A stretch of DNA of 64,000 nucleotides, taken from Octopus vulgaris. Its lineage: Eukaryota. The translations under genes were made by a program, and so were the position numbers. Every line of letters starts with the position of its first letter. Position 1 is the first letter of the stretch. The stretch spans positions 161,572,001 through 161,636,000 of the forward strand of contig OX597814.1 in NCBI GenBank assembly GCA_951406725.2, given 5' to 3'. The notes under the pieces were generated by a model. The model was not told where the DNA came from, did no database searches, and worked only from the letters and a program-made list of their open reading frames with translations. Below, one piece after another: positions 2,458 to 60,637 of this stretch.

Positions 2458-3329
2458 TTAACATTATTTCTCCTATATCTGAGAGGGTCTGTGATGGCTG
2501 AGTAAAACACCTTCCTCAAGAATAAACTATTAAAAACAAAAGGAAAAAAATATGAATGACTATGTTCATTTAATGTCCTTACTCCATTTAGCAAAATGAT
2601 GACCAGGAAGCTACCTCAATTGCTAAATAGTTGCAACATCCAAATCTATCTGAGCTGAAATAATATAACCAAATTTGTAGAATCCTCCACTCTACAACTA
2701 TTTGGAAAAAGGTGGAGAGCCATTATCTGAAATTCCAATAATATTAATAAATCTCTTTGGATTTTAATCAGAAAATAACAATGACCAGAATGATTAAGAT
2801 AAAACCCTTCAAAACTTTGGTCATCAAACTTCCTTTAATTTAAAATATGAATAGTTTCAGCAACAATATAACTTCCTATACCTACTTTATCAAAATCGCT
2901 CCGCTATTATTTCTGAATCACAACTATGTTTGACATCATACTAGCCTTCAGTTACTTCCACCAATACTTAAACAGTAGCTAATTTCACATTACACAGTCT
3001 TTAATATCTACATGATTACTATAATAAATTCGATTAAATTGATTTTTTGAATGGAAATTTGTTAAGATGATGAGGTGGGAAGCTAGCTAATAGCTAAATA
3101 TGAACTTCTGTATAAGATTTATATCTAATTTGCCAATTTATAAATCAGCAGTTTCTAAAAGATTGTTAGTTGTAGTTGACCAACAAGTTGATGTGATGAA
3201 GGAATGACAGTTGAAGTGTTGGTTAGTAGTTCATATTCTCTCATTTCTATTGTGCTACATCAGTAGTTGTGACAACATTCAGTGGCTTGGCATGCTTAAT
3301 AAATAAACTGAAGAGAGAAGGTAGCCTCT

Positions 3330-3510
3330 ACATTGTTGTTTAACTAGTTAGTAGTAGCAACTAAATCTCACTCATTATCACATCCTAATATCTTAGAAAA
3401 GAACACATTGGCTAATGTAGTTCAATGATCTGTGTATGGGAAAAGACAGGATGGTGGTGACTGGAATATCTTTGAGCATAATTGTGCTCCAACTCTAATT
3501 GGGATTCCAA
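3330..3510 (+). repeat. Dispersed ancient retroposon 3'-end repeat ((AAC)n-tailed family)
   Basis: Motif 'ggatggt..gactggaatatctttga.cata' recurs at ~13165-13300 (+), ~15040-15250 (-), ~28880-29015 (+), ~55065-55170 (-) and ~63500-63700 (-). Family not identified. Confidence 0.5.
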
Positions 3511-3949
3511 CCATGACTAGGTGTAACTCATTAATCTGTTATTTCAGATATACCAATCTCTGTTGAGTTGAAGACCAAAGTGCACACTCCAATATACAGC
3601 ATTACAGTCTGAACATGTATTTTGTCTACCTTCCTGTCTGTTTCTGTACTGCTGTACATGTTAAAGCTAAATTTGATGAATTTTTATGTCTCCATTTTTC
3701 AGGAACAGCTTGATGTATTAATGAACAGTCAATAATGTTGGAGATGATAAAGATTAAAGTTGTAGTTGAAGAAAAGTTGGCTGACACGGAGGGCTGTAAG
3801 CTATTTGAATATTGGAAAATCGTTACCTGTATCACGATGATTCGAAATAAATATCAAAATACCAACATCATGACTGCTATTCAATGCTCTGTGAACTCTG
3901 TAAAGGCTGTAAGATGTGACATGGACATCTGTAATGGAGACTACTAAGC

Positions 3950-5531: not shown

Positions 5532-5630
5532 CAGTACTTTGACAACTGCTTCATTGCCATCTGCTACAGCTAAATGTAAGGCTGTTCTCCCCTCATAATC
5601 CTGCCAATTGATTACACTAGGAGCAGTTTC
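5532..5630 (-). CDS. INVS: Inversin-like ankyrin-repeat protein, internal coding exon (33 aa: ETAPSVINWQDYEGRTALHLAVADGNEAVVKVL)
   Basis: Minus-strand acceptor atttcttctacAG and donor GTGAGT; 99 nt, phase 0/0. Peptide matches the recalled vertebrate inversin segment NWQDYEGRTPLHFAVADGNVTVVDVL and follows in frame from exon 38695-38796. Confidence 0.92.
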
Positions 5631-9529: not shown

Positions 9530-9574
<45 letters not shown>

Positions 9575-9577
<3 letters not shown>

Positions 9578-10154
9578 TTAGAACCACACTAATAACTTAG
9601 GAGTGAAATTTAGGATTTCTTGGTTTTCTGTGAATCGATTTTGATAAAACTTTTCCCTGCTGGTTTGCACATTATGACAATACCATTGTTATATTTTCAA
9701 TACTCTGTATAATGACCTTTCTTTTTTATTTCAGATTCTTCTTTTGAATGAAAATAGTCCATCTAGACTTTTCTTTTTCAGAAAATGAAGGGTAATGATA
9801 CATATTAAACGTACATTGAGTATATATTTATGTCAATAAATGTTATAATATTATTATGATTTTCTGCTAAATATATACTCAATGTATGCTTAATATGTAT
9901 CATTACTCTTCATTTTCTGGAAAAAAAAAAAAAAAAAAAAACCATCTAGATGGGCTATTTTCATTCAAAAGCATGGTTTACTCAAAAACTGAAAAATCTG
10001 AAATAAAAAGTGAAAAGACATTACACAGGATAATGAAAATATAACAATGGTGTTGTTATAATGTGCAAACCAACTGAAAAAAGTTTTATCAAAATTGATT
10101 CACAGAAAACCAAGAAATTCTAAATTTCACTCTTAAGCTATTAGTGTGGTTCTG

Positions 10155-10158
<4 letters not shown>
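9575..10158. mobile_element. Foldback MITE with ~255-bp TIRs in (TA)n
   Basis: Arms 9575-9830 and 9868-10158, 37-bp spacer; CA...TG ends (cacttagaaccacactaa / ttagtgtggttctggatg); TA runs on both sides. Confidence 0.85.
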
Positions 10159-10190
<32 letters not shown>

Positions 10191-11702: not shown

Positions 11703-11963
11703 TATATAACTATATGTGTGTGTGCACATATATATATATATATATATATATCATTTATGTGAAATAGAAAGATGAATAATCTTGTTGCAGATTAATCAAA
11801 AGTTTAACCGATACCTTGGTAGCAAAAATCACAGCAGAAGACAGCACGGTTGGAGGTACAACCATATGGTGTTGCAACCGTGTGTTGGTGCGGATAATTG
11901 AATTTTAATATTATTAGTGAATTGAAGAAATGGAGTTGAACGAAGATTGAACAGAAATCGTTT

Positions 11964-12056
11964 TATTTCATTCTACACGTGTTTCGAAAGGCACAATTTA
12001 CCAAATTCCGATTGAATAATGAGACCATATTGTGTCTTTCTCTTCAGGAAGAAATA
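11964..12056 (-). ncRNA. Type I hammerhead ribozyme (minus-strand copy, sense to INVS pre-mRNA)
   Basis: Exact reverse complement of 12140-12232. Confidence 0.8.
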
Positions 12057-12139
12057 GGAAATCCGTTGGAAAAAACAAAAACAGAACAGAGGCGGAGCAT
12101 CCCCCTCTGTTCTGTTTTTGTTTTTTCCAACGGATTTCC

Positions 12140-12232
12140 TATTTCTTCCTGAAGAGAAAGACACAATATGGTCTCATTATTCAATCGGAATTTGGTAAAT
12201 TGTGCCTTTCGAAACACGTGTAGAATGAAATA
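12140..12232 (+). ncRNA. Type I hammerhead ribozyme (PLE-type minimal stem III)
   Basis: Stem I TATTTCTTC (12140-48) / GAA-T-GAAATA (12223-32); core CTGAAGA (12149-55); stem II GAAAGACACAAT / ATTGTGCCTTTC; GAAA (12211-14); stem III C-ACGT-G; cleavage triplet GTA (12220-22). Confidence 0.8.
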
Positions 12233-12329
12233 AAACGATTTCTGTTCAATCTTCGTTCAACTCCATTTCTTCAATTCACTAATAATATATATATATATAT
12301 CTTTGGTAAATTAATAAAACAACTAAAAA

Positions 12330-20934: not shown

Positions 20935-21165
20935 ATAAGATGAGAAAATAGAGAGGTAATTAATAAATTATTATTTATTAATTAAAAAATTGACAAACAT
21001 CCCTCACAGCTGTTTCAATTCCAGACCTTCAGAAAATTAATTAATTAAATTAAAAATTATTTGGAAGTCAAATCTCTTCAGAGGTAGTTTAACATATAAA
21101 AAATTGGTGTTCAATTCCTGCATGTTGAGTAAACGGCTGCAAACTGTTAACTGAGTGTGCCTGTG
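20935..21165 (-). mobile_element. PLE-like fragment in (TA)n with degenerate hammerhead
   Basis: Minus strand 21084->21002: CCT-CTGAAGA-long AT-rich stem II-GAAAC-AGCT-GTG-AGG. Confidence 0.6.
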
Positions 21166-24411: not shown

Positions 24412-27269
24412 TACAGGGACCATCCCTCAGAGATGACAGCAGCATAATAGATAAGACAATTAAGGACATGAAGACAGGGAAAGCCCCTGGGCCATCAGGA
24501 ATCACTATTGAGATAATTAAAATTTCCAGTAGTGTGGGATACAGCTTAGTCACCTGTATTGTTAATCAGGTTATTCGGGAAGGCACCTCCTCAATGACTG
24601 ATGTAGTAGTATTATAGTTAGCTGATACAAGGGTAAAGATGATGCCTTAGATACAAGGAATCACAGAGGTATTAAATTGCTAGACCAAGTCATGAAAGTT
24701 ACTGAGAGGGATATAGCTCAACTGATTAGAAATAGAATTAAACTAGATGAGAAGCAGTTTGGTTTTGTACCTGGGAAGAGTACCACAGATGCTATCTTCC
24801 TAGTGAGAAAGCTGCAGGAAAAGTACTTGGCCAAGTGTAAGCCATGGTACTTAGCCTTTGACAGAGTTTCCCACTCTGTTATATAGTGGTCTCTAAGGAA
24901 GTTAAGAGTAGAGGAGTGGCTTGTTAGAGCTGTGCAAGCCATGTACAGTGGTACTGTTAGTAAGGTGAGAGTCGGCTATGAATACTGTGATGAATTTAGT
25001 GTACACCAGGGTTCACCAGAACTCAGTTCTCAGCCCACTCTTGTTCATTATAGTCCTCCAGGCTATAACAGAGGAATTCAAACTGGATGCCTGTGGAAAC
25101 TGCTATATGCTGATGACCTTGCTCTTATTGCAGAATCTTTAGTAGAATTGGATAAGAAATTCCAGGTATGGAAACAAAACTTGGAATCAAAGGGCCTTAA
25201 AGTTAGCCTAGCTAAGGCCAAAGTTGTTAGTAAGAAAGAAGATAAAACTCTCTTTCTGTCAGGTAAATGGTCCTGCTCAATATGTAGGAAAGGAGTTAGA
25301 AGAAATTCCATTCACTGCACCCAGTGTGAACTATGGACACATAAGAGGTGCAATGGAATCATTAAGTAGATCAATAGATAAAGCCATCTTGTATATGGCA
25401 GATGCACAGGAACAATAAGCACTAAGAGCACACGGGACTTAGATTCTCTCAAATGCCCAGGAGGCTCTCTTGAGGTTATAGATAGTTTTTGTTACCAAGG
25501 TGACCAGATTAGCAATGGTGGCAGATGCTTTGAAAGTATTCTTTCTAGAATAAGGATTGGGTGGAGGAAATTCAGAAAGTTATTACCTCTGTTGGCTACA
25601 AAGGGATTCTCTCAGAGTGAAAGGCAAACTATATGATACTTGTGTGCGAATGGCTATACTCCATGGTAGTGAGACATGGGCTCTGAATGCAGAAGACATG
25701 CGTAGACTGGAGAAGAATGAAGGTAGTATGCTCCATTGGATGTGCAACATCAGTGCACATGTATGGCAAAGTGCAAATGTATTGAGAGAAAAGTTGGGCA
25801 TAAGAGTAATCAAATGTAGCATGCAAGAGAGAAGACTATGTTGGTTTGGACATGTGATGAGTATGAATGAGGTAAGCAGTATAAAGAAGTGCTGATCACT
25901 GAAAGTGGATGGTGCCCGCAGAAGAGGGAGACCCAGGAAGAAGTGGGATGAAGTGGTGAGGACTGAACTCAGGATATTGGGCCTCATGGAGAAAATGACA
26001 ATGGACCGATGTGTCTGGTGATATGAAGTGCTTGAGAAGACCTGCCCACATCAGTGAAACAGAGTTCTAGAAGCACTGTGTCCCATCTACACTTAAGAAA
26101 ATTTTTCACACACTCTACCACAACAACCCAAACTATGTTTCTTCTCTTCCTCACATTTCTGCTTCATGCACTATACTTACCTCCCACTCCCCAATCTTGT
26201 CCTCTTGGCCTTGTGCCACTGTATCATTGCTCTCTGCTAGCCTTCGACCTGTGTGTTCCACCCACATGCCCTGTCTCACTGTATTATTGCTATCTGCTAG
26301 CCCCCAACTTGTGTATTCCACCCACATGTAACAAGAAAACTTTTCACTCACCCAACCCTAACACACCAATCTACATCTCCACATATCTTCCCTCCCTCAC
26401 ATTTCCTCCTTCATACACTATGCCTAGCTCTCACTCTCCAATCCTATCCTCATAAACCTGTTCCTCTGTATCATGCTACCCGGTAGACCCATTGACTCTA
26501 TAGAAACCCAGGTTTTCACCACTCACTCCCCCACCTCCACACTCTTTAATCACACTTCGTTTGCAATATCCTGCCACTTATATTATAGTGTTTGAACCTC
26601 AAGGGTATGCTCTGGCACTTGCCACCATCTATATCTCTCTCTTCCTTTATTCCACCATCCCATTTATATTCTGATCTACTCCCTTGTGAGTATTCCCAGC
26701 ATTTTGCCACTATCTCTATCCTGCTGTTTCCCACTCTCTCTCGCTCTTCTTCTCCCGCACTTCCCTCAGGTTGGTAACTATGTACTTCTTTTATGGTAGC
26801 ACACCTGTTTCCATCTTCATTTCTGATCTCTTTCTCTCTCTCCAGCCGGGTAACCTTGTATCTCCTGTTTCTATCTCTCTGTCTCACTATAACCTTTCAT
26901 CAGTAAACACAAGATCACCTCCTCCAGTACCTCCTCCTCTCTTGAAAAAAATTATTTTTTTTTGTCTTGCAAGTACTTGGTGACCCTGTCAGTGCAGGTG
27001 CCACTTAAAAGCACTCAGTTCACACTGTAAAGTGGTTGGTGTTTGGAAGGGTATCCAGCTGTAAAAACTGACCTAGCCTGTGCTTGTGCCATATAAAAAA
27101 CACTAAGTCCACTCTGCAGAGTGGTTGATGTTAGGAAGGACAACCAGCCGTAAAAATCCTGCCAAAACAGTTACAGAAATCTGGTACAGGCTTCTGCCTG
27201 GCCAGCTCTTGTGAAACATCCTACCTACACTAGCATGGAAGACGGACGTTAAATGATGATAATGATGAT
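24412..27269 (+). mobile_element. RTE-clade LINE, 5'-truncated and frameshifted (RT + PHD-like insert + long 3' UTR)
   Basis: KTGKAPGPSGI; QFGFVPGKSTTDAIFLVRKLQEK; LLYADDLAL; ILHGSETW; RRLCWFGHV; GRPRKKW; (GAT)n end at 27253-27269. Confidence 0.95.
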
Positions 27270-30706: not shown

Positions 30707-30742
30707 AGAGAACAAAGTGTACGTACGCCACTATATATATAT

Positions 30743-30938
30743 ATATAAAATAAAATACAAAATGGGACAAGAACGCAAAACATTCGGACAACTAGGTGAT
30801 ACAAAAAAGGACAACAAAACATCCAGATACATGATATGTTTTTTGTATCATCTATCTAGACATTTTGTTGTCCCTTTTCGTATCACATAGTTGTCCGGAT
30901 GTTTTGCGTTCTTGTCCCATTTTGTATTTTATTTTATA
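30743..30938. repeat. ~95-bp-arm palindrome embedded in (TA)n
   Basis: aaaataaaatacaaaatgggacaagaacgcaaaacat pairs with atgttttgcgttcttgtcccattttgtattttatttt; centre ~30840. Confidence 0.9.
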
Positions 30939-30959
30939 AATATATATATATATATAAGA

Positions 30960-31305
30960 AGCAATTATAGAGGCATCAAACTCTTAGTCCAGGTAAATTA
31001 TGCACTCAAGAATACCTGTACTCTTAGCAGAAGTGCTAAGACAGGTCCCATTGGTAGTGGTGAGGACTGACCTGCAAGAGTCCTGTGTCAGTGCCATGTA
31101 AAAAGAGTCCATGCAGTGGCATGTGAAAGTACCCAGTACACTTTGTAAAGTGGCTGGCATTAGGAATGGCATCCATGCGTAGAAACCACACTAAATCAGA
31201 CTGGAGTCTGGTGCAGCCTCCCAACTTGCCAGCTCTGGTCAAACTGTCCAACCCATGCCAGCATGGGCAACGGATTTTAAATGATGATGATGATGATGAT
31301 GATGA
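30960..31305 (+). mobile_element. RTE 3' tail
   Basis: gtggctggcattaggaatggcatcc..ccaacccatgccagcatgg followed by (GAT)n. Confidence 0.8.
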
Positions 31306-38694: not shown

Positions 38695-38796
38695 AAGAAG
38701 CACTTTAACACAGGAGACAGCTGTGGGGTCTCTACTGCTAGCAGCCCAATGGAGGGGAGTTTTACCTTCACTGTCTGGAATGCTGATATTGGATCC
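38695..38796 (-). CDS. INVS: Inversin-like ankyrin-repeat protein, internal coding exon (34 aa: GSNISIPDSEGKTPLHWAASSRDPTAVSCVKVLL)
   Basis: Acceptor ttttttttatatcaattttcAG and donor GTAAGT; 102 nt, phase 0/0. Matches the recalled vertebrate inversin segment DSNIGIPDVEGKIPLHWAANHKDPSAVHTVRCIL. Confidence 0.92.
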
Positions 38797-55672: not shown

Positions 55673-55728
55673 AAGTTTCTAAGGGTGATTGAAGAAAAGT
55701 GTACTGGTGGTTCTGGCTGGTTCAATAA

Positions 55729-56225
55729 TCCTGTTTGAATCCTAGTTTCTTCTCAGCAAATCACAAATGATACAAAACTGAATATTCACATCACAAGTGG
55801 CACAGAGGCCAAACCTACCAATGCAATAAAGCAAAAATACCAGAAATGAAATATCATATGGACATATAAGTAGCACAGTTTCTTATAACAGTTAGCTACA
55901 GTCTGCACAATCACTGCTACTACATTAAACTTCAAAAGAAAAAATGACATCTAGAAAACACCAATGTAATACCACTCTATTTTAAAACCAGTGTCCATTA
56001 AAAGAAAATACAAACACAAACATAGCAGTAACTTTAATAATCACCTTATTAGCATTAATGTGTATCCCTGCACATTACTGATTAGTGCCTGTTGACTTGC
56101 TAATACACCATTTCTGCCTCTACATTGAGACATTGGTAGGTTTGGCCTCTGTGCCACTTGTGATGTGAATATTCAGTTTTGTATCATTTGTGATTTGCTG
56201 AGAAGAAACTAGGATTCAAACAGGA
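55729..56225. repeat. Perfect 95-bp inverted repeat around a 307-bp spacer
   Basis: 55729-55823 is the exact reverse complement of 56131-56225. Confidence 0.92.
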
Positions 56226-56510
56226 CTACTATAATCCATGGTTTATCTGGTATTAGTAAACTAATACTATTTCTTTCTGATGGCCAAAACTAGTATCTGT
56301 GAGTGTGCTAAGTTAATTGTACAGCTGATATTCTCAACTAATGTTCTGAAACCAAGCTTTGATGTATAGTTGGAGACGTTTTTGCAGGTTGGTGAGAATA
56401 TGACTGTATTATCATCTGTATAATGAGGTTATGTGTATGATTTGAAATGTGGGAAGGAAATATTGTTATAAGCTGAAGAGAGGTAGGTCCTTGTGGTATT
56501 CCATTTGAGA
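56226..56510 (-). mobile_element. Ancient LINE RT remnant
   Basis: Reverse strand reads NGIPQG (~56490) and HYTDDNTV (~56410), degenerate RT motifs. Confidence 0.55.
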
Positions 56511-58773: not shown

Positions 58774-60536
58774 TGATTTTGATTTTTCCAGTTTCAGCTC
58801 ATGAGCTGTGGCCATGCTGGGGCACCGCCATTTGGTTTGCTACATGATTTTACCTCACGAATGCTTTTTAGCAACTGCCATTTGGTGCATGAGAGAGTTC
58901 GATGCAGCTGCCCTCATCTGCACCTCCTGCCGTGAAGTTGGTTCATCCGGGACACCTGACAGGAAGAGATCCAGTCCTACTTTAAAGACATCCGCATCTA
59001 CACCATGCAGGTCCCTCAGGTTCTTCGGGAGGATATTGAAGAGCTGTGGGCCTCTGAAGCCCAGGCTATCACAGTATCTTGTCCTACATCTTGATGGCAA
59101 ATTTGGAGTCCTTGGTACCATGCAGTGGCGCCCAGTTCTGGCATTTGTGTGACTCTCGATGCCAAAGTTTGGGACAAGTCCTTCCAGGACCTTCCAGATA
59201 TATATTATGGCATATCTTTCTCGCCTACGCTCCAAGGAATAGAGTTTTAATCTCTTGAGTCTTTCCCAGTAGCTTATATGCTGCACAGAGGCTATCTTCT
59301 TTGTGTAGCTTCGTTGGATCGCCTCAAGTTCTGTGATCAACTTGACACTGGATGGTGACCATAGCTGAGAGCAATAGTCAAAGTGGCTTAGGACAAGTGT
59401 CTTCCAGAGGACCATCATGGTTTCTTGTTCTCTTGTTCTAAAGGTTCTAAGAATCCATCCGGCCAGCCGTCTACATTTCATTGCCAGTTTAGCAACATGT
59501 ACATGAAAGGTCGCGTCATCACTCATGTGAATACCCAGGTCACGCACTGATTGTGCCTCTGGGATTGCAATCCCTCCGGGTCCAGTGTATTCATTGGGTA
59601 TTGCATTCAGTTTTGCATGCTGATAGCATAAAGCTTGAAACTTTTCAGCATTGAACTGCATGCTATTCTTTTCAGCCCATTTGTATATTTTGTCCAGCTC
59701 ACATTGCAGGTGCTTAGTGTCTTCAGGGTTCTGTATTGTCTGTGAAACTTTTGTATCATCTGCATAACTTGTGATCGTGGCTCTCTGCGTGGCTGAGAGG
59801 GCCATTATGAACAGTAGTGGTCCCAAAACAGTGCCCTGTGGAACACCGCTCACTATTTGCGTGTTAATGGAAGTGGCCCCATTGGCTACTACCACCTGAC
59901 TTCTATTCTTCAGAAAGTCATGAAGCCATTCTCCCAATTTTCCAACTATGCCAAGATCACGCAGTTTGTGACATATCATTCCATGATCGACTTTATCAAA
60001 GGCCTTTGCAAAGTCGAGATATATCACTTCCACATTTGAGTGGTTGAGCAGTCGTTTCAGCACCCAGTCATAGTGTTGTAGGAGCTGAGTTAAGCAGCTT
60101 CTTCCTGGTCGGAAACCATGTTGGGTGTCAGGCAGCAAGTCATTTTCTTCAAGGAAGGTGATTAGTTTCCTTCTGACTATTCGTTCCACGACCTTGCTGA
60201 TGTGTGAGGTCAGAGAGATAGGTCTGTAGTTCTTGGCCTCCGCTCTGCTAACTCCTTTATGAATAGGGCATATTTTACCTTCCTTCAGTTTTCTTGGAAG
60301 TTTGCCAGTTGCAAGGAAGCTCTGAAAGAGAGACTGCAGTCGTCTTGCTAGGACTCTCTTACATACTTTTAGAAGGATTGCCGGGAATCCATCGGGGCCA
60401 GTAGCTGAGTTTGTTTTCATCTCATCTATAGCCTTTATTACATCGTCTTCCTTTATATTGATGTAATCAATCATTGCTGCCTCTGACCCCATATCTGCAG
60501 TGGTGAAGAAGTCAGTTGGATTGCTGATTTGGATTG

Positions 60537-60540
<4 letters not shown>
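58771..60540 (-). mobile_element. Young 5'-truncated CR1-group LINE inserted in (TA)n
   Basis: (TA)n on both sides; uninterrupted ORF; short 3' UTR ending in a stem-loop and short AAATC-type repeats; CpG-rich relative to flanks. Exact clade needs an RT phylogeny. Confidence 0.9.
58855..60492 (-). CDS. Non-LTR retrotransposon ORF2 fragment (reverse transcriptase, no endonuclease), 545 aa
   Basis: SATGPDG, NYRPISLTS, QHGFRPGRSC, YLDFAKAFDKV, GVPQGTVLGPLLF, YADD, RDLGI and LYSLERRR motifs. Frame stays open upstream to the truncation point, so the Met is internal. Confidence 0.93.
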   Translation of the reverse strand: MGSEAAMIDYINIKEDDVIKAIDEMKTNSATGPDGFPAILLKVCKRVLARRLQSLFQSFLATGKLPRKLKEGKICPIHKGVSRAEAKNYRPISLTSHISKVVERIVRRKLITFLEENDLLPDTQHGFRPGRSCLTQLLQHYDWVLKRLLNHSNVEVIYLDFAKAFDKVDHGMICHKLRDLGIVGKLGEWLHDFLKNRSQVVVANGATSINTQIVSGVPQGTVLGPLLFIMALSATQRATITSYADDTKVSQTIQNPEDTKHLQCELDKIYKWAEKNSMQFNAEKFQALCYQHAKLNAIPNEYTGPGGIAIPEAQSVRDLGIHMSDDATFHVHVAKLAMKCRRLAGWILRTFRTREQETMMVLWKTLVLSHFDYCSQLWSPSSVKLITELEAIQRSYTKKIASVQHISYWERLKRLKLYSLERRRERYAIIYIWKVLEGLVPNFGIESHTNARTGRHCMVPRTPNLPSRCRTRYCDSLGFRGPQLFNILPKNLRDLHGVDADVFKVGLDLFLSGVPDEPTSRQEVQMRAAASNSLMHQMAVAKKHS

Positions 60541-60573
<33 letters not shown>

Positions 60574-60637
60574 TATACTATAATATTTTAAAAATATTTA
60601 TAGTGGAATATTCCCCATTGTTATCTTCTTTATATTT

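Follow-up and report, generated by a model that had tools for sequence, protein, structure and literature searches.

Palindromic hammerhead ribozymes in the Octopus vulgaris genome as a doubly truncated insertion of a young Penelope-like retroelement, probably formed by twin priming

Introduction

A palindrome with a hammerhead ribozyme motif in each arm, found in a stretch of 64,000 nucleotides of the Octopus vulgaris genome (hereafter the window), is probably a short, non-coding insertion, truncated in both arms, of a young Penelope-like retroelement (PLE); it was likely formed by twin priming, with the hammerheads as its passengers. The architecture, in which inverted pLTRs carry hammerheads on opposite strands, is already published; the element family itself is new. 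The locus represents a young by-product of this family, and its value lies in the family statistics that it opens to study. The origin of the inverted pLTR and of the one-sided tail of PLEs, as well as the role of their hammerheads, are open questions according to PMC8557442 and PMC11167929. Clear in vitro predictions are available here because the family offers many near-identical insertions, intact open reading frames (ORFs) and a 150-nt tail which separates two start sites.

Structure of the insertion

The arms of the palindrome span 11908-12092 and 12104-12288, have 185 nt each with no mismatch between them, and meet at a C.C mismatch (12093/12103) followed by 3 bp (GGA/TCC) and a GCA loop. 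This comparison of the arms confirms the perfect 185-bp palindrome, with its C.C mismatch, three base pairs and GCA triloop, that an earlier note on this DNA had described, and the remark made there, that the antisense arm comes first on whichever strand is read, holds as well. The C.C mismatch is a single substitution at 12103, in the right arm. The same note placed the arms correctly but overlooked a 153-nt tail, and the insertion is larger than the palindrome and lopsided, with 534 bp from 11755 to 12288 (Table 1). In tandem copies of the element, the tail sequence follows the pLTR and stops about 45 nt short of the next ATG. The tail-bearing copy is 94.5% identical to the unit of a second subfamily.

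The target of the insertion was a (TA)n run within an intron of about 33 kb (38694-5631, minus strand), and the exons on both sides have good splice sites. Pfam and Atlas identify the ankyrin repeat in these host exons and give no gene name. The intronic placement proposed in the earlier note is supported by the two ankyrin exons on either side, on the minus strand. The host gene is probably inversin (INVS), and the flanking exons are probably consecutive exons of it. In run X2, which may be the source of this DNA, a contig covers 12271-12760 with no difference, and the right insertion junction is therefore present in X2. In runs X3, X4 and X5, the flank contig begins at 12288, with loose (TA)n ends in X3 and X5, which suggests an empty allele. 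Since three of the four other runs appear to be without the insertion, it is probably recent and unfixed.

Table 1. Positions of the insertion, its parts and the neighbouring host exons in the window
Feature	Position	Strand	Remark
Type I minimal-style hammerhead motif	12140..12232	+	predicted cut after 12222
Mirror hammerhead motif	11964..12056	-	sense in host pre-mRNA; predicted cut after 11974
5'-truncated PLE copy, pLTR end with hammerhead and tail, ending at start site 2 (tail end)	11755..12099	-	98.8% to subfamily-1 copy in L038, positions 3322-3666
153-nt tail, between pLTR site 1 and site 2	11755..11907	-	also next to the arm in many further copies
Inverted 5'-truncated PLE copy, ending at start site 1, without tail	12100..12288	+	98.9% to L038 positions 3325-3513
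Head-to-head junction	12093..12103	.	arm starts 3 nt apart, no overlap; from arm comparison
Left copy of target-site duplication, (AT)nC	11740..11752	+	13 nt (up to 17 counting element microhomology)
Right copy of target-site duplication	12289..12301	+	13 nt
Host ankyrin-repeat exon upstream of the insertion	38695..38796	-	AG acceptor, GTAAG donor, phase 0
Host ankyrin-repeat exon downstream of the insertion	5532..5630	-	

The window contains other repeats. A second (TA)n-flanked palindrome at 30712-30960, with arms of about 105 nt that are 91% complementary, belongs to another high-copy family (1,911 candidates), and because several of its copies have a short one-sided extension, it is probably another PLE family of like geometry. 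A (TA)n-flanked inverted repeat at 9546-10187, with 182-nt arms (88%) around a 278-nt spacer, resembles a MITE or a further truncated element, and the repeat at 55726-56228 (98-nt arms at 99%, 307-nt spacer), which is not flanked by (TA)n, is possibly a small local inversion or duplication. A minus-strand open frame of 580 codons at 58855-60597 has motifs of a non-LTR reverse transcriptase (RT) and is a LINE fragment; a further broken LINE-like stretch lies at about 24887-25895.

The element family

The 25-nt pattern of the hammerhead core has 1,515 exact matches in the genome, and its control has none. A search of the same genome with the arm gave at least 52 matches with 97-100% identity among the 40 of 1,343 candidates that were scored. 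Longer copies reach upstream through a 3' UTR of about 600 nt into an ORF, which is intact at several loci and encodes a protein of 895 amino acids, with the RT followed by a GIY-YIG nuclease. The many copies and the linked RT/GIY-YIG ORF are both what the earlier note had proposed to look for by BLAST, and its view of a Penelope-like origin with an inverted pLTR is borne out, as arm and tail match these full-length elements. The ORF carries the motifs FDI, YRDD, AVYQ and TYVG, and by Atlas language-model features its residues 770-895 match two GIY-YIG clusters, with values of 0.96 and 0.94. Neither Pfam nor PDB yielded a significant match in sequence searches with the 895-aa ORF, and a single-sequence fold of the nuclease region reached a mean pLDDT of 35, too poor for use. 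The family divides into two subfamilies whose pLTRs differ by about 5%. Identity between the window copy and subfamily 1 is about 99%, and one or two of 345 positions separate this copy from the closest of the others, so the family is very young.

The family has the features of EN+ PLEs, namely an RT with a C-terminal GIY-YIG domain, tandem pLTRs, an inverted 5'-truncated copy at the 5' end with a one-sided tail, a hammerhead in the pLTR, and an AT-rich target with a short duplication. Tandem pLTRs are seen in an array of 3,624-bp units with 99.9% identity, and partial tandems are present at L084 and L086-L088. The protein contains IRW at 36 (RWL, not RWK), SDKT at 121, CNLC at 855, CPH at 883 and one CxxC only; its RT4 is divergent and it has no CCHH, a set of motifs that corresponds to the Hydra clade. 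By motifs and by-eye alignment with the Hydra-clade proteins of Craig et al. 2021 (PMC8557442), the element appears to be a Hydra-like EN+ PLE. It is not classed as a member of Hydra because the CxCX5C linker motif before the nuclease was not found in the 895-aa protein, whose linker region is Ser/Asn-rich. A place in the Naiad or Nematis clade was rejected, given the C-terminal nuclease and the lack of a CX2-5CxxC motif. In the ORF at L087:1963-4647, the long Ser/Asn-rich stretch between RT and nuclease recalls the Asn-rich inserts of rotifer Penelope elements (PMC3846280). A second, distinct Hydra-like PLE fragment adjoins a family copy at L038:4780-6101, and RT- or nuclease-like frames of other PLE types adjoin copies at L033, L041, L043 and L048; such neighbours are consistent with common (TA)n targets.

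The hammerhead ribozymes

Each arm holds a complete type I hammerhead, with its conserved core, three stems and an NUH cleavage site. In the plus-strand motif, the core lies at 12149-12155, GAAA at 12211-12214 and GUA with H17 at 12222; stem II has 12 positions with one mismatch and a 31-nt loop, stem III is palindromic, and stem I is bulged with 9 bp. Descriptor and fold analysis confirm the parts as the earlier note had listed them, and a strict hammerhead descriptor gives two matches in the window against none in 200 shuffled windows. A looser hammerhead-like match near 21081 (21020-21095, minus strand) appeared in the first scan and was gone under the stricter descriptor. In the comparison with Rfam that the earlier note had proposed, the model Hammerhead_1 (RF00163) aligns to 12143-12228 including the whole core, but at 14.8 bits (E 0.43) it does not reach the gathering score of 34; the long stem II lies outside the model. 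An Rfam scan of 4 kb (10-14 kb of the window) gave no hammerhead match; miRNA-like hairpin matches in that scan were below their gathering scores and were dismissed as by-products of the palindrome. Among hammerhead copies, the common variants are five columns in loop II and a length change in a T-run. One stem II variant and one outer stem I variant have no compensation, and the core itself was fixed by the search pattern. No compensatory base changes were found among these copies, which are too young for covariation.

The folding of the motif was predicted in several contexts. As an isolated motif, the hammerhead fold is predicted at -9.1 kcal/mol against -14.2 kcal/mol for the best fold, with a stem III probability of about 0.18, and the stem III palindromes of two motif copies could pair at a predicted -10.3 kcal/mol. 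In a single arm with its tail, the hammerhead is predicted to be nearly absent (stem I 0.0, stem II 0.06). In read-through RNA of either strand, all hammerhead stem probabilities are predicted to be 0.0. The hammerheads would represent the normal pLTR ribozyme, one copy per arm; within the host pre-mRNA a 189-bp hairpin would enclose them, so that they would not cut. Thus, the lock proposed in the earlier note is predicted as a structure; as a function it finds no support, since head-to-head geometry suffices for it and is found in most of the sampled copies (63 of 84) regardless of where they landed. In these models there would be little to lock, the motif hardly folding even in one arm, and locking looks incidental, as a by-product of geometry and not a switch. 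According to PMC4209133, minimal PLE hammerheads show no activity as monomers and little as dimers. The hammerhead of a lizard PLE needs the PLE protein and is dispensable for insertion in vitro, according to PMC11167929.

Traces of cleavage in vivo were sought among the truncated copies. Truncation 5' ends show no peak at the hammerhead cut, with 28 there against 29 at one control position pair; about 25 and 22, respectively, remain once 3 rows at the cut (duplicates or deletions) and about 7 at the control (deletions) are removed by eye. Counting by eye over the first 100 of 321 rows had hinted at an excess of about two-fold at the cut, which this control comparison did not uphold. At L196, L198 and L202, both arms begin no more than 2 nt from the cut, these loci having been selected for one arm ending there. 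At L153:1359-2190, about 270 nt of sense 18S rRNA adjoin the element in both arms; the joint lies at the cut, inside an overlap of 2 nt, and no source copy was found in the assembly. This would fit ligation to a 5'-OH cleavage product, by analogy with U6/L1 chimeras, which are reportedly a precedent of the ligation type. At L103:1219-1290, 60 nt of 28S rRNA were captured beside a truncated copy, away from the cut, so capture at the cut is one case in two. Together, L196, L198, L202 and L153 are hints of cleavage in vivo. The rDNA itself forms an array with a period of about 18.4 kb in contig C20 (L241), where the 18S gene has about 2,650 nt, far longer than the 1,831-position model.

Twin priming and the junctions of the family

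Twin priming is inferred from the junction rules of the family, combined with findings on a lizard PLE. In Frangieh et al. 2024 (PMC11167929), the lizard PLE protein cuts and extends both target strands in vitro, two adjacent internal start sites define the tail, and a dimer is predicted. The GIY-YIG nuclease of the octopus element would similarly nick both (TA)n strands about 13 nt apart, and each target 3' end would prime reverse transcription with a single element RNA, or several from the same source locus, as template. Synthesis would begin at site 2, the end of the tail, for one of the ends and about 150 nt further upstream, at site 1, for the other. At the present locus, both cDNAs would have halted early, 3 nt apart, after which end joining would have linked them head to head, with subsequent fill-in. 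Copying two cDNAs from the same RNA would require strand displacement, a point against this model. In LINE-1 twin priming, both target ends prime on the element RNA, and the inverted truncated product has a target duplication and microhomology; the octopus insertions would be alike in all of these respects. They differ in that twin priming is occasional in L1 and its pieces do not overlap, whereas here it would yield the majority product, from fixed start sites, with arms mostly overlapping into a palindrome. In a literature search conducted largely outside subscription papers, none was found that proposes twin priming for PLEs.

Inverted forms are the majority in three samples of distinct insertions (20 of 24, 23 of 30 and 20 of 30, or 63 of 84). 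These samples and the junction sets that follow were the first or best matches listed, mostly from contigs C1-C4, and not random draws. Genome-wide, subfamily 1 has 463 ends of the site-1 type and 536 copies that run on into the tail. Out of 86 distinct inverted junctions from 160 loci, 70 have a site-1 end on one side and a tail end on the other, none has two tails, and a single one, in a three-part insertion, has two site-1 ends; the remaining 15 are cut off, tandem or complex and could not be classified. A larger set of 218 loci, in which ends close to the hammerhead are over-represented and a few recurring junctions are merged, has 92 site-1/tail junctions among 117, one site-1/site-1 and 24 others. 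From coordinates alone, 49 of 50 head-to-head pairs are mixed and the exception continues into a tandem copy, this pairing using all 100 rows of one listing and 89 of the 100 rows of another, from which 2 tail variants and 9 rows outside the common range had been left out. Among the 70 junctions, 52 have arms overlapping by at least 1 nt, 14 contain inserted letters and 4 are blunt, where chance would make 57% blunt, although end extension by BLAST may inflate the overlaps. Lineage variants are common to both arms of one insertion in 52 of 56 cases versus 19-20% between loci; rare variants are shared by the arms 28 times and private 49 times, and none of 66 classifiable insertions mixes the subfamilies.

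The published alternative is fold-back, in which one cDNA, or an antisense RNA by self-priming, would fold and copy itself, with uneven trimming or joining of the ends leaving the one-sided tail; self-priming was proposed for such palindromes by Arkhipova et al. 2013 (PMC3846280). We consider fold-back unlikely. Twin priming is favoured because of the site-1/tail polarity, the fact that either arm can be the longer, the shared variants and the microhomology; the target duplication at this locus also speaks for it. A cDNA primed at site 2 and folded back must be the longer arm, yet the site-1 arm reaches further 5' in 37 of the 70 junctions (tail arm in 27, equal in 6) and is longer in 59 of the 92 of the larger set. 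Conversely, a cDNA primed at site 1 cannot give a tail, and site-1/site-1 products, as counted above, are limited to one. In 20 of the 92, the tail arm consists of tail only and has no overlap with its partner to be copied from, and at L097 the shorter arm retains about 740 nt missing from the longer one, an internal deletion in the wrong direction for fold-back, which could however be later than the insertion. On the other side, arm starts lie within 30 nt of each other in 29 of the 70 junctions, against 9.6 expected (about three times chance), and in 15 of 36 against 5.1 in sets not picked for arm identity. This excess of near-symmetric junctions is what fold-back predicts and counts against twin priming, and the window copy, with its arm starts 3 nt apart and its triloop, is one such case; yet the sign among these junctions is mixed, with 9 where the tail arm is longer, 14 where the site-1 arm is longer and 6 equal in a by-eye count. 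Near-equal starts could also arise from the shared 5' end of a broken RNA or from coupled polymerases. The variants common to both arms fit fold-back or gene conversion between the arms equally well, and the identical 18S rRNA junction in both arms of L153 favours fold-back, fitting twin priming only if the RNA was already chimeric. Fold-back may therefore account for some of the near-symmetric copies, possibly including the one in the window.

A selected hairpin, either a regulated locked ribozyme or a self-propagating non-autonomous hairpin retrozyme, is very unlikely. It would agree with the lock predicted on both strands, with the intronic position of this copy and with the majority of inverted copies. 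Nevertheless, the centre junction occurs once in the 2.8 Gb of the genome, with one mismatch allowed, and junctions vary between loci; a spreading hairpin retrozyme, as the earlier note had envisaged, is rejected for this uniqueness, and its propagation is largely refuted. The few recurring junctions coincide with hairpins formed locally by the element, and in two pairs of them the lineage variants differ. Moreover, the locus has no tandem hammerhead units, the motif is predicted to fold poorly in one arm, and the probably recent insertion appears to be missing from three other runs. An assembly fold-back artefact would agree with the finding that no read or contig was seen across the palindrome centre, where contigs had been aligned to the whole element and were swamped by other copies. 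It is extremely improbable given the one-sided tail, the target duplication and the single polarity rule across hundreds of loci; the unrelated flanks, the centre mismatch and the right junction in run X2 argue against it as well.

Related elements

The insertions share with published EN+ PLEs an inverted pLTR, a one-sided tail, a short duplication, an AT-rich target and partial tandems, as described in PMC3846280 and PMC8557442. In the former, Pen2a_Av has a head-to-head inverted 5'-truncated pLTR with a tail at one end, and the insertion scheme of EN+ PLEs is given in the legend of Fig. 2 of the latter. The published tail of 30-40 nt in these sources differs from the roughly 150 nt found here, and in the present insertion both arms are reduced to pLTR remnants. 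The same sources suggest self-priming or resolution by a nuclease, whereas the junctions described here favour twin priming.

The Hydra clade, represented by Hydra-1_Obim, Hydra-1_Crog and Penelope-13_HM in Craig et al. 2021 (PMC8557442), is alike in RW, DKT, the divergent RT4 and YRDD, in CxxC and CxH around the nuclease E and N, in the lack of CCHH and in (TA)n targets. The palindromic stem III is also shared, the Crog element having ACAC/GTGT together with a bulged stem I, and in Penelope-13_HM the 5' copy is inverted and both strands bear hammerheads. Hydra-1_Obim differs in its hammerhead, and its protein is distant by eye, so that the element here is a different family. The unit of 3.6 kb contrasts with the mostly under 3 kb given for the clade; the CxCX5C linker is replaced by a long Ser/Asn-rich stretch, and loop II has 31 nt.

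The minimal type I hammerheads of metazoan PLEs, as reported by Cervera and de la Pena 2014 (PMC4209133), likewise have a long stem II and a 2-bp palindromic stem III suited to dimers, and Schistosoma hammerheads occur there in pairs on opposite strands, 100-700 bp apart. The octopus motif is unlike them in its longer stem II and loop II and in its 9-bp bulged stem I. Finally, non-LTR retrozymes, as described in bioRxiv 10.64898/2026.07.22.740005, are also non-coding, hammerhead-bearing and derived from PLE pLTRs. However, they consist of direct tandem hammerhead units that spread as families, and the product here is a one-off with inverted copies and a unique junction.

Implications

Twin priming could be extended into a more comprehensive cycle, which we regard, taken as a whole, as doubtful. 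Asymmetric twin priming by a protein dimer on one RNA would be combined with hammerhead cutting in vivo and re-ligation before templating, giving circles and occasionally joining rRNA, as in L153. The dimer would bind the RNA at two fixed start sites, separated by 150 nt, and copy it from both target strands. If true, this re-ligation cycle would explain the inverted pLTRs, the one-sided tail, the tandem arrays and the purpose of the ribozyme together. As a side effect of the family's activity, several hundred long perfect hairpins are present in this genome, some of them intronic, and these could be natural substrates for RNA editing or for the production of small RNAs.
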